Below the pieces are notes generated by a model. That model was not told the DNA's origin, searched no databases, and saw nothing but the letters and a program-made list of their open reading frames with translations. A DNA stretch of 64,000 nt, taken from assembly GCA_030704615.1 (NCBI GenBank), contig CM060734.1:51770001-51834000 (forward strand), in the 5' to 3' direction. This document shows positions 6,421 through 60,284 of this stretch, one piece after another. A program made the position numbers and the translations under genes. Each line of letters starts with the position of its first letter. Within the stretch, counting starts at the first letter, position 1. This DNA comes from Takakia lepidozioides. Its lineage: Eukaryota > Plantae > Bryophyta.

Positions 6421-6422
6421 TT

Positions 6423-13360: not shown

Positions 13361-14045
13361 GGTTACACGATCCATAGAATCAGTGACAGGTGGACAATAA
13401 CTTCAGGAAAAAATGGCTGACGGAAGAAAAAAACGGAAACTAGTTTAAAAATAGACACGTGGAGGTCAGGGGCGCGACACACAGCTGAGAAGGAAGTGCA
13501 AGACAGGTGTCATAAAGAAAGAGGACAAGAACGGCCGTCAAAAGGGATGAAAGGGGCCCATTAATGAATACGGAAAAGGGAAACGGAACGAACGGCAAGT
13601 ACAGAAAAGCGAAATTCTTGTCACATGTGTGATCCTAGTGGACTATCCAGCAGGGAAAGTCCACTAAAGAAAATAAAATCTAAAATCCAGTCACAGCGGA
13701 TACAGCCAATAGAAAACCAGAGAAAGGATCAAGAAAATGGAGGGAAATTGAGCGCAAGAGGCGGCGTCGTTCTGAGTAACGGGCGTCTCGACAGGACAGA
13801 CCATCAATGCTATACTTGGAAACTATGGAGGAACTAACAGACTATACGCTCGCAATATTACTTACGCAGCATAGACACGAAAGAACAGAGCGGAGCTTTT
13901 CTCTTGAGCGATGCTTGCAAGCCCCGCAGGCTTACAAGAAATTACCCATAGCTTTCTGTGGCAACCATACGTTTATGCTTTGTGCACTACAGGCATTTCT
14001 GCAGTTGTTACAGCCAAAACAGTTCTGTGAGTCTAAAATGAGAGA

Positions 14046-17000
14046 GTGAGAGGAATGGAGGAAATCAGGGTGAAGAGCACCACAATTCTGCAGAAACAAA
14101 CGATTGCTACCCCACAGGCGATACAGATACTGGAGGAGCTGAGATTGCAAGGATTGCAAAGCCTAGATTGGACACACCATAGACAGTACATGTTACAATT
14201 TTTGCAGAACTTTGAGCCAAGGACAGGAACAACAACGGTGAAGGGAGTTGAATTAATGATTACTCCCCTATACCTCCAGCAATTGTTTCGATTGCCAGCA
14301 GGTCAGGTGCATGTGGAGGAACACAGGGCAAGACTGCAAATAGGGGACTTATTCCAAGAAGGGAGTTTTCTTTAAAACTCAGGGTTATGCTTGTACCAAG
14401 GCTGTGTACCCAGGGCTAAAAGAGGTAGGCCAGGTATTGAACGTTCTGATTGCCATGAAACAGAACCAACAGTATTTGAGCAGATCCTTCACGGAGGAAA
14501 TACTCAAAGGCCTGAAGGGACAAGAGGTACAATGGGCGGACATAATGTACAACGCTGGTGGAGGAGATGAAAAGATTACAAGGTACTACGCAAAGTCTCC
14601 TATCATAGTGTCTGGCCCAATCATTGCTCAAATAATCTTGATTCTGGCATACTTGATGCGCAAGAAAGAAAGGAATGGGAGAGTGTTTGAGCCAGAAAAC
14701 ACTGCAATGGAAGAGCAAGGCTCTTCACACAGTGAGGGTGGACTAGCAGCAGGGCAACCCGAGACTAAGAGGCAGAGACGGGGAAAGACTGTAGTGGCGG
14801 ATCCACTGGCTTCACGGATTCCGCATGATAATAATTTCCCAAGCTCATGGCAGGAAGGGGCACAGCAGCACAGAGAAATGCTATTACTGGAAGCAGGACC
14901 TTTCTTGTTCACATCACAACCCACAGCCAGTGATCGACTTGCAAGGTCACAAGTTTCCATGCAGCTCAACCAGAAATAATTGATTTGGAAAGAGAAGGGT
15001 TAGATATTCCAACTACAGAACAGATAGTGGCAGAAATGGAGAAGGGGACCTCTCTATGAATATTCTGGTCTGGTCAAGGAGACAGAGATTCCAGAGGTGC
15101 AACAGTTGCCCAAGGGAAATCCTGAGGTGCATATAATACACACACCTGTGTCGGAGGTACCACAGGCGGAAGGTCATGACACTGTAGCACCGGTGATAGA
15201 TGAAGTGGTTCAGGAAGAAAAATCCGGTGGGACAATGGCCTGAGTGGTTCGTGAGACATCACACTGTTGAGGATCAGGAGGAACAGCAGCAACCTCACCA
15301 TGATGACCCTCAACAGGCAATGCTGATGAGTTCCATAGGCAGGACACTTAATTTGTTGGGGACTTATGTCAAATCCCATGTTCCAATTACCCAATTGACA
15401 GCCTTGAGAGAGGAACTCAGGAAGGAGTTTGAGGCTCGACTAGCCACTGAGTGTGCAAACAAGGTCGATGAAGAGGTCACTCTCAAGATGCAGCAGGACT
15501 TGGGAAATACAGAAAGCGGCTTTGCAATTGGCCAAGGAACAATTGATTGAGGCAGGCCTCGCGCAAGACCAGTTGCACGAAGCACATAAGCAACAGCTAT
15601 ACCAAATGCAGGTGCAGCATGAAAGCAAGTTGCAAGAAGTGAATGCACTACATACGGAGTTGCAGACAGTGCATGACAGGATGGCGATACAATGTGCTAC
15701 ATTCACAACTATGCTTGACCAATCTACAAAAGAAATAAACAGTCAAGCGGAAAAATGTACGAAGGCAGAAGAAGAGAATGTTGAGCAATGAAGCTCATTG
15801 TCGATATGAAGAATACAATCTGTCGCAATGAGATACTTTCAAGCAATACAGGCAGATTGAAGCTGATCAAGAGAAAGCACATCGTGGAGTTGCAACAAAC
15901 CATCATGGCCAATAGAAATGAAATCGCGGTCAATAACAAGGCTTGGAAGGAAGCCAATAATCTACTTGCTGCTATGCGAATTGGTTGAACCTCAGGCGAA
16001 GCGCATGGAGGCTTTACAACAGCAGTTAGAAGTGTACAAGCTAAGAGAGGAGCAAACTCTCAGGGGAACCACAAGCAACTTGGTGGATAACAGCCTTATG
16101 CAGGTCTGGTTAGCACAAGGGCCCAAGAGGGCAAAGCACCACGAAAGCTCACCCAAAGCGAGATGAATGAGCTCAGACTGCAGGTGCAGAACATTGCCAC
16201 AACTACTATAGACAATGTCTATAGTAGGATAGCAGAGTTACAAGAGGATGTAGACGGACTGCAGACTCAAGTGGAGGACCTCACTTCAAAACATCGACAA
16301 AAGAGTCTATATCCCTCAGGAACAGCTAATGGCTTCTTATTTACAAGCCAGAACTTTGGCTTTTCAGTCTTCACAGGAGGTGCAGGAGATGCCAATGATA
16401 CAAGAGCCAGTACCACCACCACAACAAGTCACTGTACCAGTAGCTGAACCTGTTGTTACTACAACCACACACAGCCACCACAGCCTGAGGTATGGGGCAA
16501 TGCTGCTTTTAACCCACCTAAAACTCCAGCTGCAAGGGAGTACAGTAGGGCTATGATTATGCCCTTCAACCAAATTCCCATCATGTTGGATTTGGCTTGG
16601 AAAGAATTAGTCCTCCGCAGTCATTCGCACATTACTACCAAATCATGCGTATCTGGCTGCCAGTGGCAACTAGGACTAAAGTTCTTCCGAACAATCGATA
16701 TTGAGGATCATCACTTTGCACATACTGGCACGAGGCAGCACGTACCATGTTGAGGGAATTAATTGCTTTCCAGGTTGTACATGGACTCATTTATACCAAG
16801 ACCAAGGAGGTAGCAAGTATTGTCATGGGATGCGGGTTATACTACGCTGCTTGTTTCTGGTACGTTATCACATTGAGCAACAAAAGATGCAAACACGCTT
16901 TCTGAGTTATTCCAGTGGAGATCATTGGGTATTACCTTCGGTGCCACCTCATATGTACCTATATGACCCAAAAGTTATGATGCAAAGGATTCTCAATTCG

Positions 17001-17400
17001 TTCATGGTTTCAAGCGGCCTGAACAATTTGTCAACACAGAAATTCGGCATTGATGATATTTTCTATAAGGGACATGTGGGGCATGGAAATACTTGCACGC
17101 TGCACCAGTAATTGGTACCCCCACTCACCTGGACAGACAAGGAGCTCAGTGTCTACACCAATTTTGTTGCTGTTCAGCGGTTACACCAAGTTGTAAAATA
17201 TAAACTTCCAGACATGGTAGGACAACATTGTATGCCCCAGAGGATTCCACAAAAAGTTCGAAAATTAAAACACCTGAGAGGCGATGAGGATTCTGATACA
17301 ACTGTTTCTTCACCAATTCTTTTGACATGGAGAAGACTATGCATTCAGATGGCAGAGAGAAGCGACGGGGGTCTCCTATGCCGGAAAGGTTACCTCGATA
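14046..17400 (+). pseudogene. Extra post-pol ORF region ('env-like'/accessory), coiled-coil rich, fragmented
   Basis: LQFLQNF..TTTVKGVELMITPLYLQQLFRLP resembles the N-terminal domain of accessory ORFs of non-chromovirus Gypsy elements; 15200-16300 are Q/E/L heptad-rich same-strand fragments. Confidence 0.6.
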
Positions 17401-17522
17401 TCAGCCTCCAGAGGGCCTCACTTATCCAGGTAGTTTATTCTCATAAAAAAACGAATGAAAAAAAAATCCCCCAAAAAAAAACATTTCGGGTCGGGGGAAA
17501 TTAAACATGGCGTGAGAAAAGT

Positions 17523-18379
17523 TGTAACACAGCCCGTCACAGTCGTGCACAACAGGCACAGCACACACACAACACAGCCGTCACAACACAACACAGCCAA
17601 CACAGCCCGTCACAGTCGTCACAGTCGTCACAGCAGACACAGCCGACACAGCCACACAGCCAGTCACAGCCCGACACAGCCAAACACAGTCGCACAGCCA
17701 GTCACAGCCCGTCACAGTTTCACACAGCCAGTCACAGCTTGACACAGCTGTCACGATCATAGGGAACGGAGAGCAGGACAGGGAACGACTGTGGGGAACA
17801 ACACCTGCGAAGGGAACATGTTAGTTCACAGACGACGGTTAGTGAGGGAAACGGTTAGAACCACGGTAGGAAGATAAAGGGAGAAGCGGGGAATTTTGAG
17901 GGACATCATTCGGAGGAGGACTTCTTGGTCATTGAGGAGAGGGGATGGGGCAGAGATGAAGAACGGAAGTGAAGATAGAGAGATGATGAGTAGATGCTTG
18001 ATATATGCAAGGCTGTAATGATATTGTAGAGCAGATTAGAGACACAATGGCTTCGGCCTGATACCTGATAAATCATAATCGGATACTTTTACGATACAAT
18101 CACACTGTGTAGAGAGATCTGAGTGAAGCTGTGGAATGAATGGATGAGTTGATGGAATCCAATAGATTGATAAAGCAAACTGATACTTAATTATCAATGG
18201 TAAGATAGCTAACATGAATACCAAAAGGGAAACAAATAGGAAACACCCCCATGATACACTAGCTGTAGGTCATGACTGATTGTTCTGCGCGGGCTGAGTA
18301 CTTAGAGATTTCCAACTCTTCTATCTTGGAGTTTCCGCCTCGAATAGCAAATGGATGGGTGAGTAAAAGCCGTGCGACA
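17523..18379 (+). repeat. 3' LTR of Gypsy element 1
   Basis: TGTAACACAG...GTGCGACA, matches the 5' LTR. Confidence 0.93.
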
Positions 18380-36446: not shown

Positions 36447-37100
36447 CACTAGTACAGATTAACGTTTTTATGACTACGGATATCACTGCAAATGCAGTGA
36501 TAAGTGCTTTTACGACTACCTCACTCTACACTGACAAACACGAAGTCAGTTCTACCATGACTACGGAGTGATAAGTGCGAAGTCATGGTCGTCACTGAGG
36601 ACGTGGCATGCGATAGTGATGCAGGGTTTGGTGATGTAGTCATAACATAAATAACTACATGACTGTAAGTTATGACTACATCACTACAGCATTGCGCCTA
36701 CATGGAGAGGCTTGTGCGTGACACGTGGGATCCTTGGGATTTGACATGTGTGACCATATGGTACAGTGGACTACACGACTACACGATTACATGTCATGAC
36801 TAACATGATAACTACATTACTACAGAAGTCCACCTACATGGATAGTTGTCTGCGTGACACACGAAATCCCTCTGCTATGACACGTGTCCAAATCGTGGGA
36901 TGGAGTATAGTGATGTAGGCGTAACTTTATGACTACATTGTGTGACTACATTGATGACTACATAACTACTCAGTACATCGCTGAGGATGACATGTGGCAC
37001 ATTTCCTGAATAACTACATTACTATGGGTGTGACTATATCACTACAACACTACATATGCCACGTGGTTTTGTTGGAGTATGTGTGAATGACACCTGTAGG
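36447..37100. mobile_element. CACTA element terminus (CACTAGTACAGA) plus GACTAC subterminal repeats
   Basis: CACTA begins where RPS8 similarity stops and is followed by many actac/gactac repeats. Opposite terminus not seen in the window. Confidence 0.7.
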
Positions 37101-44050: not shown

Positions 44051-45053
44051 TGGAATGAAATCGAGACTGATCGAAAGTTGCGATTCACAACGGAATCCCC
44101 GAACTGATAGCCCGTAATTCTCGAAAGGGGATCCACCACAAACAAACTGAGGTCAATAAGGGTAGCACTGACCCAAAGACTGGGGGCGATACATGCAAAG
44201 GATGTAGGAATGACAAGCACCGAACTTCGCAGACAGCCACACTGAGAGACACCAACCAGAAAAACTAAGCCACAAGAAGTCGTGCTGTATTTGGATGAAA
44301 AACAAACCCTGAACATGACATGAAACCATCCATTATGGAAAGACAGCAACAACCCTGGAGAGCAGTAAACAGGAAGACCCCGAATCTAATGAGGTTGTAC
44401 TGTGCCAGAAGAGCACAGCACAAACACTGACACTCCGGGGACACACCTCGCACGAATGTGTGTAACACATGACCATTGCCGACACAACCCTTTATACCGA
44501 ATGACCCCATTGCGACGGTGACGGCGAAATGCAAACTGCAGGGTAGGCAGTGCAACACACGTGGATGCATATGTGAAGCATAACAATTATTGCGAATCTG
44601 CAAGTACTGCTCGAAATTGAACTAGCATTAGATTTCTACGACACTTCCGAATTTGAAAGAATGCAAGAAGGCTGCCATGTATTGGCAGGCGGCGAAGTAC
44701 ATCTGACATATATCACAAGTACATGCAACGGATGTACTTTTTATCTACCACTTTATTTCTTGGATAATACAAAGACGCCGAAATGGATGAATTCCGTTCG
44801 CACACAATGATAACAGCCGCATCCAAATACGGTTAACAATGTCAAATTTTTATTTTGGTTACATGCCATAGCAACCCTTGTTGCAAACGTCAAACTGGAG
44901 AGCTCTAGAGGCAGCGTGGGGAGCCCTTGTTTCCAGCAGAGGAGGAAGAGAAGGAAGTCGTTATACTTCACAAGCACTAGGGATAGTGTCGTGCGCATAC
45001 ATATCGCTACACAACTACATCGCTGTCCAAACCACACCACACATATATGCACA

Positions 45054-45398
45054 ATAAGAAAGCTAAGGACACTGTTGACACAAAACATATGAAATGCATC
45101 GCTATCACTCTTTATAATAGAAGTCGAGCCAGGGGCACCCCAAGCTATGGGGACTCCACCCCACAACAACCTACACTCCCATCATGAGTACACTCAGATC
45201 TAAACGCATGCAGGAGCTCGGTCGCGCAGGCTCAACTCGAGAGAGATGAACTGCGCGACTGCCGCTCTCGTGAAGATAAGACGGACCAGGTGTCAAACTA
45301 AACTTGACACCTGATTTAACACTTGACCTAAATCCAAGTTAAAATACAAATAACTAGTTTTATGCTAGCTGTTTCACACTGTGCTTATTAACTTGACA
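45054..45398 (-). repeat. Long repeat A2 (copy of the 5' terminal repeat)
   Basis: First ~285 bp appear identical to 56785 onward; a few differences in the remaining ~60 bp. Confidence 0.95.
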
Positions 45399-45400
45399 GC

Positions 45401-45475
45401 TGTCGTGCGCATACATACGCTATATCGCTAACAACTACATCGCTGTCCAAACCACCACACATGTATGCACAATAA
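45401..45475 (-). repeat. Short repeat B1 (second copy B2 forms the element end at 44987-45057)
   Basis: tgtcgtgcgcatac...caactacatcgctgtccaaacca...gcacaataa present twice, flanking A2. Confidence 0.92.
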
Positions 45476-45490
45476 AGTAGTCTACCACAA

Positions 45491-45500
45491 TCGCCCCCCT
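45491..45500 (-). promoter_or_regulatory. Polypurine-tract-like site (AGGGGGGCGA)
   Basis: Purine run on the coding strand, just before a TG and the 3' repeat block. Confidence 0.55.
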
Positions 45501-45749
45501 AGCTGGTGGATAGGTCCCTCTACCTCCAGATAGCTACAAGACGTAATAGCCATAGCCGTACTAAGTCCTCTATCACTGTCCCTATCGTACTCAAACTCAT
45601 AGACCAAGAGCCGGGTACAAGAGTAGCCCATCGTTAGTCGCCGTCTTGCAATCTGTGAACTTGAGCCAGGACTTCGTGTATTCAAGGTCTCCTGTAGCTG
45701 GGCCTTGCGTTCTTATTAGCCTCCCATGGTTGTATCCACTCCCACTATC

Positions 45750-47210
45750 CAATGCTTGTGGACATAACCAATCCCCATCTGGAACCATCTCAAGAGGTGG
45801 AGTCAAGCACCCCATATGCCAACCTCTAGAGCATCGATCACACACCAGCATGGTGGCTGCCCCTTTAGCAGACCCACACAACATGCACCTCAAACCGGCA
45901 GATACCACTGCCAGGTTTGGGTCAATCCTGCCATCGACATTCGGAAGGTGACATGGCGCACAATTACGCACATGGTCCTTCCAAGTTATGCCATCCCGAC
46001 CCTCCAAGACCAAGACGCCCTGAGGGCAAGACCTCTCGAACCCTCAAAATAACACGTCCTGCAGTCACATCCAGGGTCGTAGAGCAATCTGCTGCAGATA
46101 GACATAGTCACCAGGGTTGAATCTCCGAACCTCAGGACGATAGCCCCACCACGTATGGTAGCATACCTCAACGTATCACGGTGTTGTGCAATGGCAAGGT
46201 TCTCGAAAGCCATGGGCATGACTCTCTTGAACACTCTGCACGCTGCTCACATGCACGTGCCCACCCGTCCGGATCGTCAAGGTTAAGAACTGTAGCAGCT
46301 TCTTCTCTGCGAATGGATGTAGGCAAATCCGGCTCTCGGCCAAAGAGAAGAAAGTATGGTGAGAAGGAGGCAAGTGATGCTGCTTGCTGAACCTGTAGCC
46401 CATGGCTAACCAGGGTAACTGAAGGTCCCAATCTCCTAGGTGTCCATTCTGCAAGCCATACTTGCGCAAACCCCTCTTTACTGTCTGAACAACTCTCTCT
46501 GCCAAGCCATCGGCTTCAGGATGATCCCGAGAAAGTGGTGCGGTGGTCTATCAAGGGCCTTGTCACACAAAGCCTGAAACTCCCCCAAGAACTCTCCCTT
46601 GGTCCGTGAGTACCTCAGCTGGAGCACCGAATCGGCTAAGCACACAATCCAAGAATGCATACGCAGCTCCCTCACTAGCCTTATCAGGCAATGGAACCAA
46701 TTCAATCCACTTGGAGAAGTGCTCCACCATCACCAACACGTACTTGTTGTGGCGCATGGTCAGTGGCAACGGCCCTGCGAAGTCAAGACTCCACCTGTAG
46801 CCCAATCCCATGATCGGAAGAGGGTGCAATTGTGGAGTAGGGGCGTTGAATGAAGCACGCACCCTGTCACACACCATGCACCTAGCCACAAATTGTTGCA
46901 CCTCTGTGTGCATACCACGCCACCAATACTGCCCCTGCAGTAGACTATGAGTGCGTCGCACCCCAAAATGCCCCAACTCCTCATGGGCATGCCGCACTAA
47001 ACCGTGCCCGCTGTGTTGGGTGAGGCACAATCCTCACTCGCCCATCCTCCCATACTCGAAGCAGGTGTGTCCCCTCCCACCTGAACCTCTTGGCTCGTTG
47101 TAGGATCCGATCCCTCTCCTTGGCAGTCATAGTGGGCTGTCGTGTCCCACTGCGGAGGTAGTCCAACACAAACTGAATCCTCATGTATATCTTTGGCGCC
47201 ACCCTGCTCA
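45750..47210 (-). CDS. Integrase (HHCC + DDE) with C-terminal PHD finger; frameshifted in this assembly
   Basis: HEELGHFG..CMVC; WSLDFAGP; TDQG; AERVVQ; PHD CMLC..MLVCDRC..WHMGCL.PPL..VPDGDWLCP (~45755-45887). Confidence 0.92.
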
Positions 47211-47392
47211 TTGCTGGCCTCAGGGTCCTCAGACACTTGATCTACAGTCATCCCTGTTGTAGGTCCAACCTGGCCTTCCGCTGCCAGATACACAGAAATG
47301 CAGATGCATGCCATCCGGGCACCATCTCCTCTCCGTCTCACCATGCCACCGAGCTCCAGTGTCATCCTGCTGGCTCGTGCATGGATTGCGAC

Positions 47393-48718
47393 TCAACCCA
47401 TCTGCATTTCGATTGACCAAACCCGGTCGATGCACCACCTGAAAGTCATACTCTTGAAGGATGAGTGCCCACCGTGCAAGCTTCCCCGAAGCTTGTCTGA
47501 CTCATCAACCACTTGAGTGGGTTGGTGATCCGTGACAAGGGTGAAGAGATTGCCGTATAGATAGCACCTGAAGTGTGCCACGGCCCACACTGCAGCTAAG
47601 CATTCTCCCTCATATGAGCTATACTTAGACTCTGCAGCATTGTTCGAGCGGCTAGCATAAGCCACTACGAACTCTCTTCCCTCATCATCCACCTGTGTGA
47701 GCACCGCTCCAAGCCCCAGCATGCTCCAATCTGTATGCAGCTGAAAAGGACGCCCCCTGATAGGTCGTCTCAAGATGGGCGCCGAGGTCAACCTCGCCTT
47801 GAGCTCTTGAAAAGCTTGTTCTTGCTCATCTTCCCACTGCCACTCCTGGTCCACCTTGGTCAGCTTGGTTAGAGCCTTTGCAATGGCACTAAATCCCTTA
47901 ACAAACCGTCTGTAATAGTTTGCTAACCCCATGAAAGCTCGAACTCGGCTCACATCCGTGGGGCGTGGAACCTGTGCAATGGACTCTACCTTAGTCTGCT
48001 GTACCCCCAATCCTCCAGGATATATCATGTGACCCAGATACTCAATCTGGTTGTGGAAAAACTTGCACTTGCCCGGATGTAACTTCAATCCGTGCGTCCT
48101 CAAGCGCTCAAATACCCCCTGAAGGTGTCTCTCATGCTCCTCCACCGTAGCACTAAAGATGATGATGTCATCTATGTAGCACCGAGCAAACTCCACCCCT
48201 GCTAGAATCCTGTCCATGACTCTTTGAAACTCAGCGGGAGCGTTTTTAAGCCCAAATGGTAAGAACCGCCACTGGTATAGGCAATCCTTCCCGTGCTCAT
48301 TGATCCCCCAGAATGCCGTCTTTTGCTTATCCGCCTCCTTGATCGGCAACTGGTGATATCCGGATCGTAAATCCAACGTGCTAAAGACCTTGGAATGCCC
48401 AATGGCATCAAAGATCTCCTCTGGTGTTGGCATGGCATACCTATCGGACTTGGTCTGACGATTTACAGGCCGGTAATCACCGCACATACGTCTCTCCGTC
48501 CAATTGCCATAGACATCCTTCTTAGCTGGCATCACTGTGGCTGAAGCATACTCTCCACCAGAGAGCTCCACCAAACCTGCCTCCCAGAGATCTTGAGTCC
48601 TCATCTGAATCAAAGACCTCTCCATGTCACTGTATCTATAGGGTCTCCGAAAGATTGGCGTGTCAGTGGCCAACTCAATACGGATCTCTTGACCCTTCAG
48701 TGCTCCCAAGTCCTTCAA
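47393..48718 (-). CDS. Gypsy reverse transcriptase-RNase H
   Basis: RMCGDYRPVN, LDLRSGYHQ, LPFGLKNAPAEFQ, YIDD, YLGH, RH HTDWS..E..TDH. Confidence 0.97.
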   Translation of the reverse strand: MKDLGALKGQEIRIELATDTPIFRRPYRYSDMERSLIQMRTQDLWEAGLVELSGGEYASATVMPAKKDVYGNWTERRMCGDYRPVNRQTKSDRYAMPTPEEIFDAIGHSKVFSTLDLRSGYHQLPIKEADKQKTAFWGINEHGKDCLYQWRFLPFGLKNAPAEFQRVMDRILAGVEFARCYIDDIIIFSATVEEHERHLQGVFERLRTHGLKLHPGKCKFFHNQIEYLGHMIYPGGLGVQQTKVESIAQVPRPTDVSRVRAFMGLANYYRRFVKGFSAIAKALTKLTKVDQEWQWEDEQEQAFQELKARLTSAPILRRPIRGRPFQLHTDWSMLGLGAVLTQVDDEGREFVVAYASRSNNAAESKYSSYEGECLAAVWAVAHFRCYLYGNLFTLVTDHQPTQVVDESDKLRGSLHGGHSSFKSMTFRWCIDRVWSIEMQMG

Positions 48719-49169
48719 ACTGAAGGCAAAGCAATTCCTATAAGCCCTCAGGAACCGCCGTATACGTCGTCTCTCTCCTCCGGTGACAATGGGTCCAATG
48801 TCAGGCTCCCAATTGTCCTCCGTAACTGCAACCTTAAGTCCAGTGGGCTTAGAGGTAGAGGACGCGTCCCGTGGTTGCTATGCTGCAACCTCTTGAGCAG
48901 TACCCCCTTCCTGCTCAGTCAATGACAAGGCCTCATCCTGCCCCATCATCTCATCATTGAGAACCTCCTCATCCCGAGAAGAATCCCCAACCTCATCCAT
49001 CACAGCTGCCTTCGCTGCCAACTCCCTCTGAACCTCGAGCACCTCCCACGTGTGCCATGGATGTCTACACCTCGTGGTCCTCACCGGCTCGCCCCCACTC
49101 GCTGCCTGTACCGTCTCGGTAGGCAGAGAGACCGTCAAGGGAAGTGCACTCCGCACTCTACGTTGCTCA

Positions 49170-50125
49170 GCCATAGCCAAGCTGACAATCCAGGTCAAGC
49201 AATTGAGATCCATTGCTTGCCCCAACACCTGACGACGTGATGCCTCAGAAAGAGAAGGCACCGCCGTGGTCCCAGTGGAAAACCCCATAGCCCGCTCTCG
49301 CTCGTCGGCATTAGGCTCCACTAACTGCTGCAACTGAGCATCCCACAGGAGGCCAGGTCCACCATCCCGAAAAGCATGGGATCCTGGGAAGCTGAGCAGT
49401 GTAGGTAATGCTGCTCGTGGTTGACCCACCCTGTTGACCACTGCCAAAGGCGAACGGTCATCGTGTCTCACACGTTGAGACTGCCTTCCTGTGTCCAAAA
49501 TGCCATCCACGTTGAGGTGTGCTGGCCGCTGCACCCCATCAAATGCACGCTTGAGCAGTGCGGGTGGCATCAAGTTAGTCCACCATAGTCGTGGACGATG
49601 AGCCCGTGACCCCACTGCAGCTGCATCCAGCAACACTGCTGACCCAAGCCACGACCGGACTTGATGCACACTGGCCATCACCCTGGCCCGAGAATCACCC
49701 ATCAGTGGTACATTCTCCAAGATGTATGCTGGAGATACAGCTTGATGAAGCTGCAAGCAGCGCAAAATCCGCACCATCTCCCAAAACAGACCCGTCCTCG
49801 AGTCTCGCAATCCATTGCCATGCCCGGCTGATGAATGCCCTTGGCAGGGCCAACCTGCCACTATCAGATCAATGGAGCCAACCTGCTCCAAATCTTGCGC
49901 CCCCAACAAGGAAATGTCTGCTGGCAAGGCTTGTTGGTATCCACGAACTGCAGACACAGGCAACAAGTCAGGGTACTGCTGTACCAACTGAGCACATGGC
50001 GCAGTGAGACGCGTCGTGCAGTCTCATCCCTCTCCACATACAGGTAACGCCTTACCCGCACACCTGCCTGTAGCACAGCAGCCAATCCGGTGCTGATCCC
50101 GCCAAACAAGTCCAGAAGGCAAATG
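49170..50125 (-). CDS. DNA (cytosine-5) methyltransferase domain, DNMT3-like, embedded in pol
   Basis: Ordered C5-MTase motifs: I LDLFGG, II YVERD, IV AGWPCQ (catalytic PC), VI ILENV, VIII AHRPRLWWTNL, IX ERERAMGF, X LGQAM. One 1-bp frameshift near 49992. Confidence 0.93.
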
Positions 50126-50485
50126 CCTTCATCCGGCCGCTGCCACACAAGAGGTGTGGTGTCCAATGGCGACAACTGAGGTGGCCCTGGTGCAATCACC
50201 GCACTCTCCTCCTCTCCTGACGGTACAAAAGCTTCTCCCAAGCTTGTTGCACCCGTCCATCAGCAGCTTGCTGCAAATCCTTGCTCGTACCCCACAACGG
50301 AGTGTGAGCAACCATGGCAGGCAACTCCGCCGTACCATGCATGTCATCCTGCTCTGCTGGAGGTGGCACATCCTCTGCATGGGCATTGCCTTCCAGCAAC
50401 TCTCCAGGCCAACTAACGGCAGCTGTGAAGGCGGCTAGTGTTGGCATCTTGCCCCGCTGGGCAGTTGCAATACCCCCAATGAATG

Positions 50486-53077
50486 TCACAGGAGCTGTGC
50501 ACGGCGACCATCCCCTGACTGCCATCCAGGCCTGTAGGATGCTGACTCCTCCCAGAAATCCAGGGTGAAGCCCATGGGGTATAACACTGCCCCACCAACG
50601 AGGACATCGTAAGAGACCGCGTCTGTCACAATGGCCTTGGCTCGCATCACTGAGCCATCTACAGGATGATCCGGCTGCAGTCTAATAGCCAACTGATGCC
50701 GTGTCATGCCGCGAGCCTGCTCTGATCCTCCCAGAGATGTCTGTATCTGGAAAGGACAAGGCTCCATATCCGCCTCCATGAGGCCCAAACCTGCAATAGC
50801 AGCTCTGCCCAACATCAGTGGCTGAGCTCCTGAGTCCAACAAGACCCGCAGTGGCCGGTACTTCTTGCCTGCCGGTCCACTCAAAGTGAAAATGCCTCCC
50901 TGGTTGTCTAACAAGACAACTCCAGGTGTCACCGTGGCGCGCTCAAAGGCTGGCCTAGCTGGCAGCTCCGTCAATCTGGCAGCTGCAACTTGCCATGGCG
51001 CAGCCGTGGCAGTCTTGACCCTCAAATCCGAGGATCCCTCTGCCACTATACCTTCCACTAACTCCGCAGAAGATGAAGTGACCTCCCCACTCTCACAGAG
51101 AGTTGCTGCTAGTCTGAACACTGCAGCTGGTCTCACCCCCGGCGTCGCAATCATGGTTGCCGAGAACAGTGGGGCTTGACACACAGAGGTGGCTGCCCCC
51201 AATAACACACCGGCTGCACTAGCCTTGGTAGCAGGTGTCAATGCTGCACGTGTAGCTCTCCCCAATGGCATAGTAACCTCCGCCTCGGTAACAGTCGGGC
51301 GAGAACTAGGTGCCATGGATGGCGTTGACACTGTCTCCGCCAAGGTGAATGACTGAGGCAGCCTCGCCTGACGGCTTGCCTCCCCACGTTGTGGATCCAA
51401 CTCCACCTCTGCACCTCGTGGCTCAGGAACTCGTGCTGCTCCTCGAGTCACGGCTGCAGCAGACTCCACCTGCTCTAGTGGTAGTGCTGCTCCGCACATG
51501 AATCCCATGCCTCCCATATCTCCTCCCTCAGGAGCAGGAGGTGGACCATCCCGCCTGGGAGCCGGTACCGCCTGAGCTATAGCCATGGCAGCGAGCCTCT
51601 GCTCTAGCTGCTGAAGCCGATTGGCCATGCCTTGGTCAACACCCTGACCTCCGCGTCCTTGGCCATGTGGAGCTTGCCCTTGGCCTGCACCTCGTGCCCG
51701 ACCACCTCGTCCTCTTTGGGCTGGTCCACCTCGCCCCCGGCCACCATTGTTCCCTTGGAACTGGCCTGGGCGCAACTCAGGATGCAAGTCATAACACTGG
51801 GCATCTACATGCCCATACTTGCCACAATGCCCACACTGCAACTGTGCAGGCTGTGCTTGTGCCGGCCTTCTGCCATTCTCTGGGCAATCTCTTTTGACAT
51901 GGGGTCCTCCACATGTCCAACATATCACCCCTGGTTGCTGTTGGCCTGCAAAAGATGCCACGGGCCTCTGCACCTGAGGTCCCCTGTAAGCTCCATGGAA
52001 CTTGGGCTGGGCAACCTTGCCCCCCTGACCACGCTGTTGGGCAGTCCCTTGTGCCTGTGGGTTGACAGTTGTGCCCCGTGCAGGCATGTCCTTGCCAAAT
52101 CCAATTGTAACAACTCGCTCCTCCACCATGTTGAGCTCAATCCGCTCAGCCAGCAGAAACACATCTGCTAATGTGGGTTGGGCTGCTTGTAACAGGGTTG
52201 CATCTCGCACCCTTCTCTTGAGCTCCTTGTCCAGAATTCCATACCAAAACTGGATTGCCTGAGCTTCAGTAACCCCTTGGGTCACACTTATCAAGCGCCT
52301 CATACGAGTGTACGCCTCTCGCAGGCTCTCACTGGGTTTGCGCTGGAAGTCTTGCAAACTTCGCAGCTTCTCTGTCCGTACACCTTGGTAGTTCCTCCGC
52401 AACTCCTGGAAGAACTCCACCACCGGGTTGAATCTAGGCACATGTGTTGTAGTCGTGGCAGGAGGAGTAGTAGCACCTTTTGAACTGGTACCACCTGCAG
52501 AAGTACCAGCACTACTTGCTCCACTACTAGTGCTGGCAGTGGGAGCTATTGGTACTGATGCAGCTACTGGTCGCGTCGTGCCTCGAGTAATGGAGACGTA
52601 GTCAGGTGACCAATACATCCTCCACTCCTCAATCTCTGCTTCATGTCCTCGCCTGAACTCGTGGTAATCGTCCATAGGCGGGCCTTCCAAATGCTGGAAC
52701 AGTCCCTTCCACGCCATGAATGGGGTGAATAGCTGTGGATTGCGCATCTGCTGCAAATCACACCAGCTGTCAAACTCCTGGATAAAGTCATCCAACTCGA
52801 TTGTGCCCACAGCTCCAGAGTACCTACGAGGCCCCTTGGTAGCTCCATACATCTCCTCCATGTCGTCCCACAACAATGGCGAATGAAAGTGCACACCTGT
52901 TGATGAAGCCTCCGAGTCTGTGTCTGACTCTACAGTAATTGAGGGTGGCGGTGAAGGTGGTCTGAACCGAATACCTCGTCTTGTGAACCCACTCTCACTG
53001 TTACTGCCTGTAGCCGTACTCCCCTCAAAACCCTTGGGTAACTCCGTAATGACACTCACAATGTGCACCTCCTCCAC
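50486..53077 (-). CDS. gag: gag-protease polyprotein
   Basis: 863-aa open frame: capsid-like region (LQDFQRKPSESLREAY), knuckles CWTCGGPHVKRDC and CGHCGKYGHVDAQC, RGG tract, protease LLDSGA...DVLVG. Confidence 0.92.
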   Translation of the reverse strand: MEEVHIVSVITELPKGFEGSTATGSNSESGFTRRGIRFRPPSPPPSITVESDTDSEASSTGVHFHSPLLWDDMEEMYGATKGPRRYSGAVGTIELDDFIQEFDSWCDLQQMRNPQLFTPFMAWKGLFQHLEGPPMDDYHEFRRGHEAEIEEWRMYWSPDYVSITRGTTRPVAASVPIAPTASTSSGASSAGTSAGGTSSKGATTPPATTTTHVPRFNPVVEFFQELRRNYQGVRTEKLRSLQDFQRKPSESLREAYTRMRRLISVTQGVTEAQAIQFWYGILDKELKRRVRDATLLQAAQPTLADVFLLAERIELNMVEERVVTIGFGKDMPARGTTVNPQAQGTAQQRGQGGKVAQPKFHGAYRGPQVQRPVASFAGQQQPGVICWTCGGPHVKRDCPENGRRPAQAQPAQLQCGHCGKYGHVDAQCYDLHPELRPGQFQGNNGGRGRGGPAQRGRGGRARGAGQGQAPHGQGRGGQGVDQGMANRLQQLEQRLAAMAIAQAVPAPRRDGPPPAPEGGDMGGMGFMCGAALPLEQVESAAAVTRGAARVPEPRGAEVELDPQRGEASRQARLPQSFTLAETVSTPSMAPSSRPTVTEAEVTMPLGRATRAALTPATKASAAGVLLGAATSVCQAPLFSATMIATPGVRPAAVFRLAATLCESGEVTSSSAELVEGIVAEGSSDLRVKTATAAPWQVAAARLTELPARPAFERATVTPGVVLLDNQGGIFTLSGPAGKKYRPLRVLLDSGAQPLMLGRAAIAGLGLMEADMEPCPFQIQTSLGGSEQARGMTRHQLAIRLQPDHPVDGSVMRAKAIVTDAVSYDVLVGGAVLYPMGFTLDFWEESASYRPGWQSGDGRRAQLL

Positions 53078-53590
53078 GTGACACTATAAGGCTCTAGTAC
53101 TAATCTAATAGTGACACGGGTGGGCACCTGTTGCAGTCTAAGGGTCATATCCCAATGGCTCAGGGCACCTGCATCCACCGCAAGAACTCCTATGGTTGGC
53201 TGGTCATCAACCCAGCCTCACCATAGAAGAAACACTGGTGGTCTTGCTGGTCATCACTCCAGCCTCACCACCGACAGCATACTCTAGGATTGACCGGTGA
53301 TCAAATCCGGCCTAATCCCTATGAAAGCAAGCGCCCACACAAAACCAACATGGCGCACAGTCAAGCATGCAGGTGTTGGGGGGGATCCAAACACAAGAAA
53401 TCAAAACATCAACACCCCCACACCAAAATCCAGCTGCAATGCTGATCCTGCAGAATATCCCAGCCCAAAACCCCGGACTGACTGGCCTCCACCAAGAGAG
53501 GCTTTGGCAACTACAAGTACAAGGTAATGAAAATAGTACAGAGATGGAGGGGAAGAATAGAAGCCCGCCCAAGCAAGATCTAATCCTGAT

Positions 53591-54340
53591 CTATGCTATC
53601 AACTTCCAGACTTCTCTCAAAGTGCCTCGCTCTGCTTGATGGTAAGGTGTAGGAGGTATATCTATGTCCAGAAACCTGCCACTAACCTTGTCCCAAGCTA
53701 CAGTAGCTCGCTCTAACCAACCCTCCTCCTCTTTCTGCCAGGTAGAGACAAAGCAACACTCTGCTATCTCCCGCTCACTGAACACTAAAGAAAACAAAGG
53801 TAGGGTCTGATAGTCTCTCAACTCGAAAGCTTTGAGACGGTTGCGGGTGTCTTCATTGCGAATGACTGCATCGCCTTCAAACAGAACAAACTTGTCCTCG
53901 CTAATGAACCCCCGCTCGTGGTTGCCTTGTGCAGAGCGTGTCCGACTGCAACACTGTCTAATTGCACAAACTTGTGCAGCTCCTGCTCCTCTGCTCCAGT
54001 ACACCACGGCCTTGTGGCTGAACACCTTGGTCCCCGAGGCTGTCTTTGGCTGTGTTCCAAGCCTAGCTTTCACCCACTTTGGTATTTCACCTACAGCTGC
54101 AGAACTGCTGGCTCCAACAGAGTTCTGACTGTTCAAGGCGATATTGAGGCCCTCAATGCCAACTACAGCAGTCTGTTGTCTACTGCTAATGCCTGACTCC
54201 CAGTATGCAATCAACTCGTCCAACTGTTCTCCACTCAAATCAGTCTGAGTTCCTTGGGAAACATAAATCGTGTCCCCTTGTGTGCACAGACTAAGAGAAG
54301 AGACCTGCCCTTCAATTACGTCCTCATTTCCCCCAGCCAT
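53591..54340 (-). CDS. Unknown 249-aa ORF upstream of gag, inside the element
   Basis: ATG-initiated, uninterrupted, same strand as gag; no recognised motif. Confidence 0.45.
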   Translation of the reverse strand: MAGGNEDVIEGQVSSLSLCTQGDTIYVSQGTQTDLSGEQLDELIAYWESGISSRQQTAVVGIEGLNIALNSQNSVGASSSAAVGEIPKWVKARLGTQPKTASGTKVFSHKAVVYWSRGAGAAQVCAIRQCCSRTRSAQGNHERGFISEDKFVLFEGDAVIRNEDTRNRLKAFELRDYQTLPLFSLVFSEREIAECCFVSTWQKEEEGWLERATVAWDKVSGRFLDIDIPPTPYHQAERGTLREVWKLIA

Positions 54341-55041
54341 GCATGGAGTACATCCACCAATTTGTCTCTCATATGGACCAGCACAGGTTCTAGAGACAGG
54401 ATTGTGGATCTTTCATGGCACACTCACACTCTAAAAATTCCATAGATTTTTAGCAGAGTCCCCAAAACAGAAACCAGGTTTAGATAGGTAGATTTCCCCT
54501 TTCTGTAGCTATCCCCCCAAAAACTGGGTCAAACAGAGTCCATTTGACAAAGATATGATGAATTTGGCTCCAAATCATTCAAATTAAATTAAAAAGGGGG
54601 GTTTTTTTTTTTTTCTTAAAGGTTTTCAAGTTTTAAAAATTCAAAGTTACACTCAAAATATCTGGTAACTGGTTCCCGGTTCCCTAAGTTCTATATGGCA
54701 TCCTAGGTTCCCTGACCACGTGACTGTTGTTCCCCTCCATTTCATTTGAGTTCAACAGCTCACCATGCTTTGGAATCCCAACCGTCTTCTACCACAAACC
54801 GTGGTGACGATGGAGTTCGTGAAGCGATCCTTCCCAGTGAACCCTCGAGAGACGAGTCCCATGTGCACTTGATATACACTCTCTTAATAGAGATCAAAAT
54901 CAGCAAGGAGACACCATTGACGACACCCAGAGATCAGAGACAAGTACTTGCGCAGTTCGGAGGCCACAGCATCCCCTCTGGACACTGAGCGGGGAATAGC
55001 TGCTACACAGCAGCTCAGTCTATCGTCAGCTCCTATACCTA

Positions 55042-55494
55042 CTAGCTTCCTGCCCCTGCCATAATCAAAGAGACAAGTGACACAACACCAGCTGGAAACA
55101 CCTTTCCTGAATTTTTGTATCGAGAGCCCATCACAAACAAGAGAAGCCTTGAAACAGCAACACCGATAGAGGACGCAAGGACAGGGTTCGAGGGCAGGTT
55201 CAGATAGACATAATAGAGGATCAGAGCTGACCCTCCCCCTGACAGCAATGACTTGCTGCTCCCAGATTTTGCAAATCCGATCACTCCTCCCAGACCAACA
55301 AGGACTGCATACGCCAAGGTCAGCTTCTGCGACATAGACAGCTTCATCTTTCCGTCACCACTTCCCTCTTCCTGTCCTCCCTCACCACCGTTCCCGTTGC
55401 CTCCATTGCCCGACACTTGGGTTACATGCTCAGCCAGACCTTCAAAAAAACCTGGCCCAAAATTCACTGGCTGCTCGGACACTGGCATGACCAA
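55042..55494 (-). pseudogene. Captured TMEM14/FATTY ACID EXPORT (plastid FAX2-like) sequence with divergent C-terminal end
   Basis: Gly-rich linker then LSMSQKLTLAYAVLVGLGGVIGFAKSGSSKSLL..GSRY..SGKVFPAGVVSLVS, typical of the plant FAX/Tmemb_14 domain; no introns. Confidence 0.85.
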
Positions 55495-55973
55495 ACCTCT
55501 TTAACTCCAATCAGCCTGCTGCTGAGTTACGATCTCATCACCAAGCAAAATCTATCCCAATGCCCAGTTGAGCTGCCAGTCTCGCATTCACTTTCCCCAC
55601 CAAGGCAGCTGCAGTACACTGACTGTCTTAGCTCCCTCCATGACAACCTCCCGCATTTGGGCAAGTTCAGCTTCACGGACCTCCCAGCGACTTAGCAGCT
55701 GCTTCAGGTCATGGTCCTAGCTAGCGCATGCTGGGCTGCAACCAGTTGCAGATCCTTATCGTGTAGAAACCCCTTCACTGCTCTCTTTCCATCTCCTGAC
55801 GCCATGCTCCATCCTCCAGCCACTTCACTTGTTTCAGGCACCCAGGTCCCTATGGGCAGGTCACATGCTCCGGCAACAGGAGTGCTCTCAAGCGGACATT
55901 GAGCGCCCTCCACTGACTCAGTTGAGTGTGCAAACCTTTCTGCTCATGCAGTTCCAGCAGTCAATACTCACTC

Positions 55974-56465
55974 CTAGTGATGATGATGTTCATGCCCTAG
56001 AAGACCACCCTCTCCTATCACCTTCAACTGAAAGACTTGGCTGCAGTCTGAGCATTCATACTGTTTGTCCTTCTCCAGCTTGAACCATGTCACATCATGC
56101 TCATCCTCACCAACACCTCCTGAGCACCCAACTATCCGCTCATCATAGTGTGACTCCACAATTGCAGGGGCATCCTTGGTTCCAAAGGGACCACGAGGCG
56201 GATCCAGATCAAAGCGCTTCCCACCCGAGCGCTCCGCTTCCAACTCCTCCAGCTCAACTCCTGTTGCAATTCCAAAATCGCCCGAGCTGCCTCCTGCACT
56301 TGCCAAATCACGACTACGATGCAGCCACCGCGCATATGAGAGACCCCGATGTTCTGATTGCTCCGCTTGCGGTTGCGGGTTACACAGCAATGTCGGTGGA
56401 GGCACACATGGTACACGCCTGGATGCAACCAACCGTGAGAGCCTGCATCCAGCCGTCCTCAACAT
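55974..56465 (-). CDS. COX5B: Captured intronless cytochrome c oxidase subunit 5b copy
   Basis: IATG.E.EELEA, GPFGTKDAPAIVESHYDERIVGC.GG.GEDEHDV.WF.LEK..ECSDCSQ.F.L, His-rich end; Arg-rich presequence-like N-terminus from ATG 56465; single open frame. Confidence 0.92.
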   Translation of the reverse strand: MLRTAGCRLSRLVASRRVPCVPPPTLLCNPQPQAEQSEHRGLSYARWLHRSRDLASAGGSSGDFGIATGVELEELEAERSGGKRFDLDPPRGPFGTKDAPAIVESHYDERIVGCSGGVGEDEHDVTWFKLEKDKQYECSDCSQVFQLKVIGEGGLLGHEHHHH

Positions 56466-56782
56466 AGCGCCCCACTCCCTCTGGGCCTTGCCATCACACC
56501 ACCAGCTGCCATCGACATATCCTCCGCAGACGGCGACGCCCTTACAGTGGAAGCACACCTCGCCAATGCCAACAGAAATATGGGCAGACCACCATTACTC
56601 TCTCTTCTACCACACCATTGCGACTGGAGATGTGAGACGAACTCAAGCTAGAGCCGTTCTATGCTCCTTGCTTGAGCTGCGTACAAGACCATGACCATCT
56701 ATATTATAATAGTGCTTAAAAAAACAAAAACATCATATCTAGCTTAGCACTGGAAAACTAGATAGTGCTCATCTCTCTCGAG

Positions 56783-57132
56783 TGATAAGAAAGCTAAGGA
56801 CACTGTTGACACAAAACATATGAAATGCATCGCTATCACTCTTTATAATAGAAGTCGAGCCAGGGGCACCCCAAGCTATGGGGACTCCACCCCACAACAA
56901 CCTACACTCCCATCATGAGTACACTCAGATCTAAACGCATGCAGGAGCTCGGTCGCGCAGGCTCAACTCGAGAGAGATGAACTGCGCGACTGCCGCTCTC
57001 GTGAAGATAAGACGGACCAGGTGTCAAACTAAACTTGACACCTGATTTAACACTTGACCTAAATCCAAGTGTTAAATACAAATAACAAGTTTTATGCTAG
57101 CTGTTTTCACACTGTGCTTATTTAACTTGACA
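56783..57132 (-). repeat. 5' terminal repeat A1 (TG...CA on the coding strand)
   Basis: Coding strand reads TGTCAAG...CTTATCA; copy of 45054-45398. Confidence 0.95.
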
Positions 57133-57489
57133 ATAGGAATAGAGCCAGATATAGAATGAGGATGGAAAGAGTAGATGAAGAGGTAAAGGAGGAAGAAGAG
57201 GGCAAAGAGGAAAGTCTGGTGATGGAAGAGCAGGATTCTGGAGAAGAACAGCAGCCCGCCATACTTCCAAGAACTAGTGAGGAGGAGACTGCATCCGAGG
57301 GAGAGACGGACGCCGAAGATGATGTTGATGTTGGCCTCACAAAGAAGCAGATAGTGGGAAAGAGGATGGGGGAGATGCTCCAGAACATGCTCGGCGTAGA
57401 GAGCAGTCCGAAGCGCAAAGGATCTCCGGCGATTGGGAAGTCTTCTGGAGCACCCAAGAAAAAGGTACAAGTGATGGCCAAACCTACTT

Positions 57490-60170
57490 GGAAGCTCAAA
57501 CAGAGTGTGGCAACGCACACTGTTTGAGACCCACATTTGTGCTTCATTTTTTATGTCAAAATCGGCCACTTTGGGCCTCTCTGTCTGGTTCAATTCACCA
57601 CAGACTGGAATGTCAATCAGTGTGCGACAACGCACACAGTTTCAGACCCCACTTGTGCTTGTTTTTTTTATATGAAAATTGCCTACACATGGCATCTCTC
57701 TCTGGTTCAATCGACCCGTATTAAGAAGCACAAACAGTGTGCGCCAACGCCGGCCGCTTGAGCCCCAACTTTGTGCTTGTTTTTTTATACCCAAATCGGC
57801 CCCAAAACGGGCATGTCTGTCTGGTTCAATCCTCCACTATTTGGAAGCTCAAACAGTGTGCGGCAACGCACACTGTTTGAGCCCCCACTTGACATTATGT
57901 TCTCATGTTAAAATCGGCCACAAAGGGCATCTCTGTCAGGTTCAATCCAAACTTACCTGGCAGCTCAAACAGTGTGCGTCAACGCACACTGTTTTAGCCC
58001 CCCTTTTGCCTTGGTTTTTGGTGTGGAAATCGTGCACACAGGGCCACTCAGGCAAGTTGAATCCACACTTACCTGGAAGCTCAAACAGTGTGCGTCAACG
58101 TACACTGTTTGAGCCCCCCTTCTCATTGTTTGTTTCATGTCCAAATCTGCAATCTTAGGGCATTTGTTCTGAGGTTCAACCACAATTACCTGGCAGCTCA
58201 AACAGTGTGCGTCAACGCACACTATTTGAGCCCCCCATCTCGTTGTGTAATTCATGTAAAATCGACCACAAATGGCATTTTGGACAGGCTGAATCCACAC
58301 TTAAGTGGGAGCTCAAACAGTGTGTGTCAACGCACACTGTTTGAGCCCCCTTCTTTTTGTTTGTTTCATGTTAAAATCGGCCACATAGGGCATGTCTTTT
58401 GAGGTACAACCACAATTAGCTGGCAGCTCAAACAGTGTGCATCAACGCACACTGTTTGAGCCCCCCTTCTCATTGTGTGTTTCAAGTTAAAATCGGCCAA
58501 ATAGGGCATCTCTTTTGAGGTTCAACCACAATATCCTCGCAGCTCAAACAGTGTGGGTCAACGCACACTGTTTGAGCCCCCCTTCTCGTTGTTTAATTCA
58601 TGTAAAGGTCGGCCACATATGCCATCTCTGACAGACTGAATCCACATTTAAGTGGCAGCTCAAACAGTGTGCGTCAACGCACACTGTTTGAGCCCCCCTT
58701 TGCCTTGTTTTTTGGTGTGGAAATCTTGCACAAAGGGCCACTCTGCCATGTTCAATCCACCCTTTATTGTGCGGGAACGCAAACTATTTCGTGCACACAG
58801 GGGCCTCTCTGTAAGGTTCATTCCACCACTATTGGGAAGCTCAAACTGTGTGCCCCCTTCAGTGCCTGTTTTTTTATTTGAAAATCGGCCACTCATAGCT
58901 ATGATAAGTTCAAATCACCCCTTATTGGAAGCTCAGACAGTGTGCATTGACGCACACTGTTTGAGCATCCTTTTTTGCTTGTTTTTTTCATGTGAAAATC
59001 GTGCATACAGGGGCCTCTATGTAAGGTTCATTCCACACCTCTTTGGAAGCTCAAACAGTGTGCGGCAACGCACACTGTTTGAACCCCCATTTTGCCCTGC
59101 TTTTTGCCTTGTTTTTCTTGTTCAAAACAGCCACAAATGGCATCTCTGTCAGGCTCAATCCACACTTACGTGGCAGCTCAAACAGTGTGCGTTGACGCAC
59201 ACTGTTTGAGCCCCCCCTTGTCATTGTTTTTTTCATGTGAAAATCGTGTGCACAAGGGCCTCTCTGTAATGTTCATTCCACCCCTATTTGGAAGCTCAAA
59301 CAGTGTGCGGCATCGCACACTGTTTGAGACCTCATTTTGCCTTGTTTATTGCCTTGTTTTTCTTGTTCAAAACGGCCACAAATGGCCTCTCTGTCAGGCT
59401 CAATCCACACTTACGTGGCAGCTCAAACAGTGTGCGTTGACGCACACTGTTTGAGCCCCCCTTGTCATTGTTTTTTTCATGTGAAAATCTTGCACACAAG
59501 GGCCTCTCTGTAATGTTCATTCCACCCCTATTTGGAAGCTCAAACAGTGTGCGACAATGCACACTGTTTGAGCCCCCATTTTCCCTTGTTTTTCTTTTTC
59601 ATAACGGCCAGAAATGGCATCTCTGTCAGGTTCAATCCACATTTACGTGGCAGCTGAAACAGTGTGCATTGACGCACATTGTTTGAGCCCCCCTTGTCAT
59701 TGTTTTCTCATTTGGGAATCGTGCACACAGGGGCCACTGTTTGTGCCCCCTTCACTGCCTGTTTTTTGATTTAAAAATCGTCAGAATAGGGCCACTATGC
59801 CATGTTCAAACCACCCCTTGGAAACTCAAATGTTTTGGGCCCCATCTCTGTTTGTTTTTTTAATGTGAAATTGGGCGAAACACGGCCAGTATGGATGCTC
59901 AAAACACCCATAGTTGGAAGAACGAACAGTGTGTGGCCCCCTCTCTGCATGTTTTTTTATGTGGAAATGTGTCACATAGGGCCTAATGTCATGTTGAAAA
60001 CACCTCTATTTGGAAGCTCAAGCAGTGTGCGGCAACGCACACTGTCTGTTCCCCACTCTCTGCCTGATTTTAGATTTGAAAATAGACCACTCATGGCCAG
60101 TGTGCCATGTTCAAATCACCCATTATTGGAAGCTCAAACAGTGTACGGCAACGCACACTGTTTTTGGCCC
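57490..60170. repeat. Tandem array (~115-125 bp period, ~20 full units plus partials) with 36-bp palindrome GCTCAAACAGTGTGCG-NNNN-CGCACACTGTTTGAGC
   Basis: Cores at ~57494, 57611, 57728, 57847, 57963, 58079, 58196, 58311, 58426, 58542, 58657, 58931, 59049, 59176, 59294, 59421, 59538, 59653, 60016, 60132. Confidence 0.97.
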
Positions 60171-60284
60171 GCACAATGCTTGTTTTCTCATGTGAAATGG
60201 GCCAAATCGGGCCTACCTGCCATGCTCTAAACACCATCTGTTCTTGCATCTCTCATATATCAGTTTGAATGAACAACCGTGTAG

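Follow-up and report, generated by a model that had tools for sequence, protein, structure and literature searches.

How a retrotransposon without a tRNA-type primer site begins reverse transcription is the question raised by a locus in the window, the whole stretch of 64,000 nucleotides of Takakia lepidozioides DNA that was analysed. The window contains an LTR-type element in which a short site beside the upstream repeat is complementary to a hairpin sequence inside that same repeat. An earlier note on this DNA had taken the pair as an apparent signal for priming by the element's own RNA. The answer depends on the architecture of the element, the exact position of the site, the behaviour of the two sequences in other copies of the family, and the comparison with elements for which self-priming or other 5'-3' contacts have been described.

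The element and its repeats

The element is a plant-type Ty3/gypsy retrotransposon on the minus strand, which is its sense strand. Its coding region (45597..53083, minus) is broken by frameshifts and an in-frame stop. On that strand, a gag/PR frame (50486-53083) with a gag-like ORF, zinc knuckles and a protease-like motif is followed by a C5 DNA methyltransferase (C5-DNMT; 48878-50023, PF00145), RT/RNase H (47393-48877; PF00078 and PF17919), an integrase with H2C2 and rve domains (46563-47033; PF17921 and PF00665) and a PHD finger after the integrase (45597-46043; PF00628, E 4e-11). The methyltransferase lies between the gag/PR ORF and the RT, and PF00078, PF17919, PF17921 and PF00665 follow PF00145 in order, which is the PR-RT-RH-INT order with a C5-DNMT in pol that marks a DNMT-bearing Ty3/gypsy element. 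A Pfam scan found no chromodomain at the integrase C-terminus, where the PHD finger stands instead. The in-frame stop (48878-48880) splits the DNMT and RT ORFs, and numerous frameshifts in comparison with other copies show the window copy to be degenerate.

The closest named proteins are those of Marchantia polymorpha (69-76% identity), and a Klebsormidium nitens protein reaches 45%. The best non-plant matches are gypsy-like proteins of fish and arachnids, at 37-40% identity. The gag/PR protein had no match among viral contigs and metagenome contigs, and a hairpin pattern with free loop positions gave 0 matches in either set. A scan of genome contigs returned one relative, L001, which has 42% RT identity and carries both DNMT and PHD domains. 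In L001 (1-10362) the DNMT is placed between RT/RNase H and the integrase, whereas it precedes the RT in the window element. The L001 contig begins inside gag, so that it has neither 5' LTR nor primer site, and no other copy is present in its genome. As a eukaryotic gypsy element filed under a Minisyncoccia bacterial MAG, L001 is likely the result of binning contamination. An alignment scan of viral contigs yielded 26 gypsy loci with 31-41% RT identity, many of them collapsed one-LTR assemblies; tblastn detected no DNMT or PHD domain in these 26 loci, which were left out of the comparison as too distant.

The integrated unit runs from 57133 to 44987 (about 12 kb), has TGTC...GACA termini and is flanked by a 4-bp target-site duplication, ATAG, read from the sequence at 44983..44986 and 57134-57137. 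Its upstream LTR-type repeat, A1 (56785..57133, minus, 349 nt), is identical to the downstream repeat A2 (45054..45398, minus) over 56785-57070. These 286 identical nucleotides are preceded by five differences in the first ~63 nt, mainly in homopolymer runs. A2 carries the same hairpin, with its 15-nt pairing sequence at 45235-45249. Upstream of A2, also on the minus strand, are a polypurine-like tract (45494-45500), a short piece termed x (45476-45491) and a repeat B1 (45401-45475). A second copy of the latter, B2 (44987..45053, minus), ends in ...GACA and forms the 3' terminus of the unit; a single substitution and three slippage indels distinguish B1 from B2. The resulting order (A1 ... polypurine tract, x, B1, A2, B2) is one of split direct repeats, yet the element encodes a DDE integrase.

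The A-x-B junction is found in 19 contigs of X2, one of the public DNA runs used for comparison. Circular permutation may account for the window copy: a two-LTR form (LTR = x-B-A) would have been opened at the internal B|A junction. Other arrangements were considered and rejected: A1 with the tail that follows it, taken as a solo LTR, has no target duplication at its own ends, and a standard LTR composed either of A+B or of x+B+A fails in each case at one end of the window copy. Since the window copy is no standard provirus (its order is A...x-B-A-B, and DNA resembling host genes separates the site from gag), the assignment of a primer-binding position rests on the junction of A and tail in other copies.

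The DNA that separates the tail from the repeated body is about 1.9 kb long (54797-56698), low in copy number and near single-copy depth. Two intronless ORFs lie there, one COX5B-like (55974-56594) and one TMEM14-like (55042-55500). Contigs from both DNA and RNA part from the window sequence at the same places (55053, 55870, 55971, 56091/2 and 56473/91), the pattern expected of processed retrocopies, and the two ORFs are therefore probably such copies of host genes. A poly(A) run is present at 54601-54613 (minus).

The site beside repeat A and its partner

The sequence at 56769-56783, TCATCTCTCTCGAGT, is the exact 15-nt reverse complement of 56966-56980, ACTCGAGAGAGATGA; direct reading of the sequence bears out the earlier note on this point. 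In the sense RNA, which has the minus-strand sequence, the two arms are 56982-56966 (upstream) and 56783-56767 (downstream). In the window copy the 15 Watson-Crick pairs are followed directly by G.U (56981:56768) and G:C (56982:56767), so that the unbroken duplex comprises 17 pairs. The primer-binding-like site accordingly spans 56767..56783 (minus), or reaches 56766 (18 bp) in most copies, and the candidate self-primer sequence in A1 spans 56966..56982 (minus), its 3' end (56966) pairing with the LTR-proximal end of the site. The 15-mer is partly of low complexity (a CT repeat) and has the palindrome CTCGAG inside it, which weighs against a primer role. With up to 2 mismatches allowed, it occurs at three places in the window, namely 56769-83 (minus) and 56966-80 and 45235-49 (plus, in A1 and A2), where 0.10 matches are expected by chance and where none of 100 shuffles reached three. 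Exact inverted pairs of at least 15 nt, no more than 400 nt apart and outside the 117-bp satellite, number two in 64 kb (56769/56966 and 36631/36669). Both results indicate that the complementarity of site and hairpin is real and not a chance match. The other inverted repeat, at 36631-36684, is a 16-nt perfect hairpin with a 22-nt loop.

The candidate primer sequence is held in a GC-rich hairpin (56952..56990, minus). The 9-bp stem described in the earlier note (56952-56960 / 56982-56990) is present and encloses 21 nt; the placement of the 15-mer in a loop is correct to that extent, but 7 additional pairs are predicted to close part of that loop. Folded alone, the hairpin has a predicted energy of -27.2 kcal/mol (z -3.15). 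When A1 and the tail are folded together, the minimum free energy structure abandons the local hairpin in favour of pairing between 56982-56970 and 56767-56779 (13 of the 17 pairs), with two side domains flanking the long-range pairing. The 231-nt domain so delimited (56990-56760) has a predicted energy of -89.3 kcal/mol (z -4.52), and 0 of 200 shuffles were equally stable. Given this preference and this stability, the long-range pairing is thermodynamically credible, and no more than that follows from folding. The predicted stable local hairpin competes with the long-range duplex, which is a point against a primer role. Two more perfect hairpins, with stems of 11 bp and 8-11 bp, occur in the 5' part of repeat A (57019-57077), a segment that also gives a weak, sub-threshold Rfam match to the plant miRNA precursor MIR6288 (E 0.046).

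The duplex ends at 56783 and the A1/A2 homology at 56785, and the next two bases complete a ...CA end that is also seen where A abuts piece x in other copies (X2 loose end at 45057, 19 contigs). The duplex begins 0-1 nt past the end of repeat A, and the 3' end of the upstream arm points toward the repeat. Because this 3' end faces the LTR, the geometry is the one that a minus-strand primer requires.

The earlier note had also stated that no TGG-type primer-binding site follows A1. This is true: along the sense strand no TGG is reached before 56697-56695, 87 nt past the repeat end. A tRNA-type site was defined as TGG, the complement of the universal CCA end, within 0-5 nt after the 5' LTR, a definition that does not involve the host tRNA set. 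Three TGTGGTAGA motifs, at 56614, 54796 and 45487, were tried as tRNA-type sites and discarded; the 12-mer match has an E value of 0.078 and is without tRNA-like continuation by eye. A second gypsy-like element in the same window has an LTR ending in ...GCGACA at 6420 and a canonical TGG primer site at 6423-6439, 2 nt beyond the LTR end. It is thus the DNMT-gypsy family, and not the genome, that lacks a tRNA-type site. In the available text of a survey of plant LTR elements, self-priming is predicted from at least 10 bp of complementarity to the 5' LTR that begin 0-5 bp after the LTR (PMC6317226). At the window site, no sequence complementary to a tRNA 3' end is present (judged by TGG at 0-5 nt), and the complementarity to the 5' LTR amounts to 15 exact bp, or 17 with the G.U and G:C pairs.

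The site could instead bind a host primer different from a tRNA 3' end, for instance a small RNA such as a tRNA fragment, in which case the LTR hairpin would be incidental or a regulatory mimic. Half-tRNA primers are in fact reported for plant copia lineages in the available part of the same survey (PMC6317226). However, a host primer would have to end in ...CUCGAGU-3', and the perfect partner in the element's own LTR is the simpler explanation. The window has 0 tRNA genes, and Rfam at E up to 1 over 56300-57400 returned two unrelated sub-threshold matches (MIR6288 and DAOA-AS1_2) and nothing tRNA-like in or near the region. A host primer is considered very improbable.

Conservation among copies of the family

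Contigs of public runs were placed on the window at 80% likeness; X2, X1 and X6 are DNA, and X5 is guessed to be RNA. The summed word depth of X2 over 44900-54375 is 0.4-1.2 million, far above the ~450-690 of single-copy contigs, and the family is therefore very abundant. The 86 nt that follow A1 (56699-56784, minus) are also repeated, with an X2 depth of 15,000-82,000 (36,000 at 56767-56788). Contigs, diverged ones included, join this conserved tail, or leader, to A. Among the 32 contig pieces listed (2,822 more exist), at least three bridge the border between A and the site with at least 31 nt on both sides, and at least seven others begin at 56767-56771 and extend at least 85 nt into A. The X5 contigs, which are uninformative on expression or on starts, cover the tail and leave 56888-57010 uncovered. 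A search of the window with the loose ends of family contigs produced nothing useful.

The site and its partner vary little in this large family. Among the 40 of 46 variant rows listed, none with a share of at least 5% falls in 56767-56788 or in 56966-56980. The listed rows around the site are 56752, 56763, 56765, 56766, 56789, 56790 and 56795-56799, with many elsewhere in A, so that a 22-nt block around the site is nearly variant-free. The two variable positions that touch the ends of the duplex favour pairing. Position 56981 is G in 535740 of 536752 depth units (99.8%), which turns the wobble of the window copy into a G:C pair, and 56766 carries T>A in 11,579 of 17,958 depth units (64%), which allows it to pair with 56983. 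With these majority alleles, the duplex of most family copies comprises 18 uninterrupted Watson-Crick pairs, and it would be longer still with the minority alleles at 56765 (16%) and 56763 (6%). The complementarity pointed out in the earlier note is a conserved feature of the family, 18 bp in most copies and longer there than in the window copy. A1 and A2 share three family-rare alleles, at 56827, 56846 and 56981.

As judged from the placed contigs, the family pattern is one of conservation and extension and not of covariation, all copies being drawn from one family. Both 15-mers are invariant in the copies, and hence no compensatory change is visible. Common ancestry of the copies in a single family might account for the identical 15-mers, which counts against the primer reading. 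The pair would then be an accident passed on by descent and now without function: a short piece of LTR sequence would have been duplicated once, inverted and beside the LTR, for example by RT snap-back or template switch, and young descendants of one master copy would share the result. The single-family origin of all the evidence fits this explanation, as do the lack of variation in the 15-mers, with its consequence for compensatory change, and the near invariance of the A core, where 56981 is alone among the rows listed between 56943 and 57010. However, the X2 copies include some that are less than 90% identical (114 of 1303 pieces), and the rows listed include variants on either side of the site but none in 56767-56788. 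The commoner alleles make the duplex longer instead of eroding it, and an accident would leave the element without any primer site. An origin of this kind without present function is rather improbable.

Candidate self-priming and its relation to known systems

The signal is real, conserved and correctly placed. The rare exact complement, its position at the LTR end, the lack of TGG for 87 nt, the family conservation, the folding and the literature criterion argue together for a self-primer. On these sequence features, the site at 56767-56783 (minus) is tentatively read as the primer-binding site of a self-primed, Tf1-like reverse transcription, a reading held with a little less than even confidence. 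The self-priming proposed in the earlier note stands as regards the primer-binding position, the missing TGG site, the conservation in the family and the agreement with the published criterion (PMC6317226, in the text available), and is conjectural in its remaining parts.

Those parts are the steps of the reaction itself. The hairpin sequence would have to be transcribed at the RNA 5' end, cut and used in priming. Either by folding on itself or by pairing with a second RNA molecule, the element RNA would bring 56966-56982/3 onto the site. RNase H of the element would presumably cleave next, after 56966, and synthesis from the 3' end so released would proceed across the final 182 nt of A, yielding minus-strand strong-stop DNA. 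This DNA would in turn transfer to the A2 copy at the 3' end of the RNA.

The main rival to the primer reading is a functional long-range RNA-RNA contact that does not serve as primer. The site beside U5 would pair with the hairpin of A2 (U3/R) near the 3' end of the RNA, or with a second genome, and would cyclise or dimerise the RNA and aid initiation or strand transfer in the manner of Ty1 CYC5/CYC3, while something else would act as the true primer. Since A2 carries the same 15-mer near the RNA 3' end, cyclisation of the Ty1 kind is possible. Dimerisation loops present a palindrome in a hairpin, and the sequence here is likewise offered in a hairpin and holds a 6-nt palindrome. Conservation and position fit such a contact as well as they fit a primer. 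Ty1 requires direct 5'-3' pairing beside its PBS and Ty3 has a 5'-3' bipartite PBS, according to the available text of PMC4974528, and both resemble the window element in having complementary boxes beside the primer site and in the 3' LTR region. In the window element the boxes are present in the 5' leader and in A2, but the tRNA PBS is absent, whereas Ty1 and Ty3 use tRNA-iMet with a TGG site. A contact of this type also leaves the element with no other visible primer site, there being no TGG for 87 nt, and the 18 contiguous pairs ending exactly at the LTR border exceed known cyclisation boxes and are what a primer needs. The contact is an unlikely alternative.

The primer reading finds its closest parallel in Tf1. 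In Tf1, the first 11 nt of the mRNA serve as the primer. The window element differs from this in having a 17-18 bp duplex, the partner of which lies in a hairpin 182 nt upstream. Self-priming has been shown for Tf1 and inferred for Tj1 and the Tf1/Sushi group, with a segment of the 5' LTR as the primer (PMC4600332, in the text available). Like the window element, Tf1 and Tf2 of S. pombe, Tj1 and the Tf1/Sushi elements have no tRNA site, and their own 5' LTR is complementary to a site just downstream. In the Tf1 group, as here, the polarity permits extension into U5 after the cut, and stems flank the site in the predicted fold, as described in the available part of PMC4600332. The window element is set apart from the Tf1/Sushi/Tcn1 clade by its PHD finger and DNMT and by the lack of a chromodomain. 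The element is therefore said to work like a self-primed one and is not filed in that clade.

Self-priming has already been predicted in plants, namely in the Tcn1 and TAR lineages (Neumann et al. 2019, PMC6317226). According to the available text of that survey, it is predicted for 12% of the LTR elements surveyed, for 83% of 1,500 elements of the Tcn1 chromoviruses of mosses and club-mosses, and for 89% of TAR copia elements. By the same operational criterion, self-priming is predicted for the window site as it is for Tcn1 and TAR, and the host, too, appears to be a non-seed streptophyte. Tcn1 elements, as that text describes them, are ~6.4 kb long with a 5-bp TSD and a chromodomain, in contrast to the ~12 kb, 4-bp TSD, DNMT and PHD finger of the window element. 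A second point of comparison is KnitGypsy-Dnmt3 of K. nitens (de Mendoza et al. 2018), described in the available text (PMC5890265) as a gypsy-type LTR element whose pol likewise includes a C5 DNA methyltransferase. To the window element, however, the protein of K. nitens is less similar than those of Marchantia (45% against 69-76%). Neither 'PBS' nor 'primer binding' occurs in the available text of the KnitGypsy-Dnmt3 paper, where the mode of priming is not described.

The repeats of the window copy, A1 ... B1-A2-B2, match the A-internal-B-A-B arrangement of the split direct repeats of DIRS, Ngaro and PAT elements. The window element differs from these in having a DDE integrase (H2C2 and rve), a 4-bp ATAG duplication and TG..CA ends, and a scan of 10 ORFs revealed no tyrosine recombinase. 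A much broader proposal joins both peculiarities of the locus. In it, a gypsy family with integrase and DNMT would prime itself from an LTR hairpin and not from the RNA 5' end, and would propagate with split direct repeats in circularly permuted order (A-PBS-body-PPT-x-B-A-x-B). Such an order would result if the integrase opened an internal ...GACA/TGTC... junction that mimics the LTR-LTR circle junction. The family would then represent a third independent origin of self-priming in plants, together with a DIRS-like architecture in an element with a DDE integrase. Taken as a whole, this proposal is quite improbable.

If confirmed, the narrower reading of the site as a self-primed primer-binding site would extend self-priming to a DNMT-carrying gypsy lineage of streptophytes that is without the chromodomain of Tf1/Sushi/Tcn1, and would point to more than one origin of tRNA-independent priming among plants. 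It would also provide a defined pair of 18-nt sequences open to mutation and compensation. An element with its own methyltransferase and its own primer would depend less on host factors, which bears on how such families attain copy numbers in the hundreds. Should the pairing prove to be accidental or a cyclisation signal, it is an ordinary structural detail of one repeat family.

The second gypsy-like element of the window (5724-18379, plus strand) is distantly related to the DNMT element (RT 28-43% identical) and has ~700-nt LTRs that are 98-99% identical to each other. Its LTRs start with a CACAGCC-type microsatellite, and their ...GCGACA end resembles the end of repeat B. A tandem satellite of ~117 bp (57470-60200), each unit of which contains a ~35-nt palindrome, adjoins the DNMT element.
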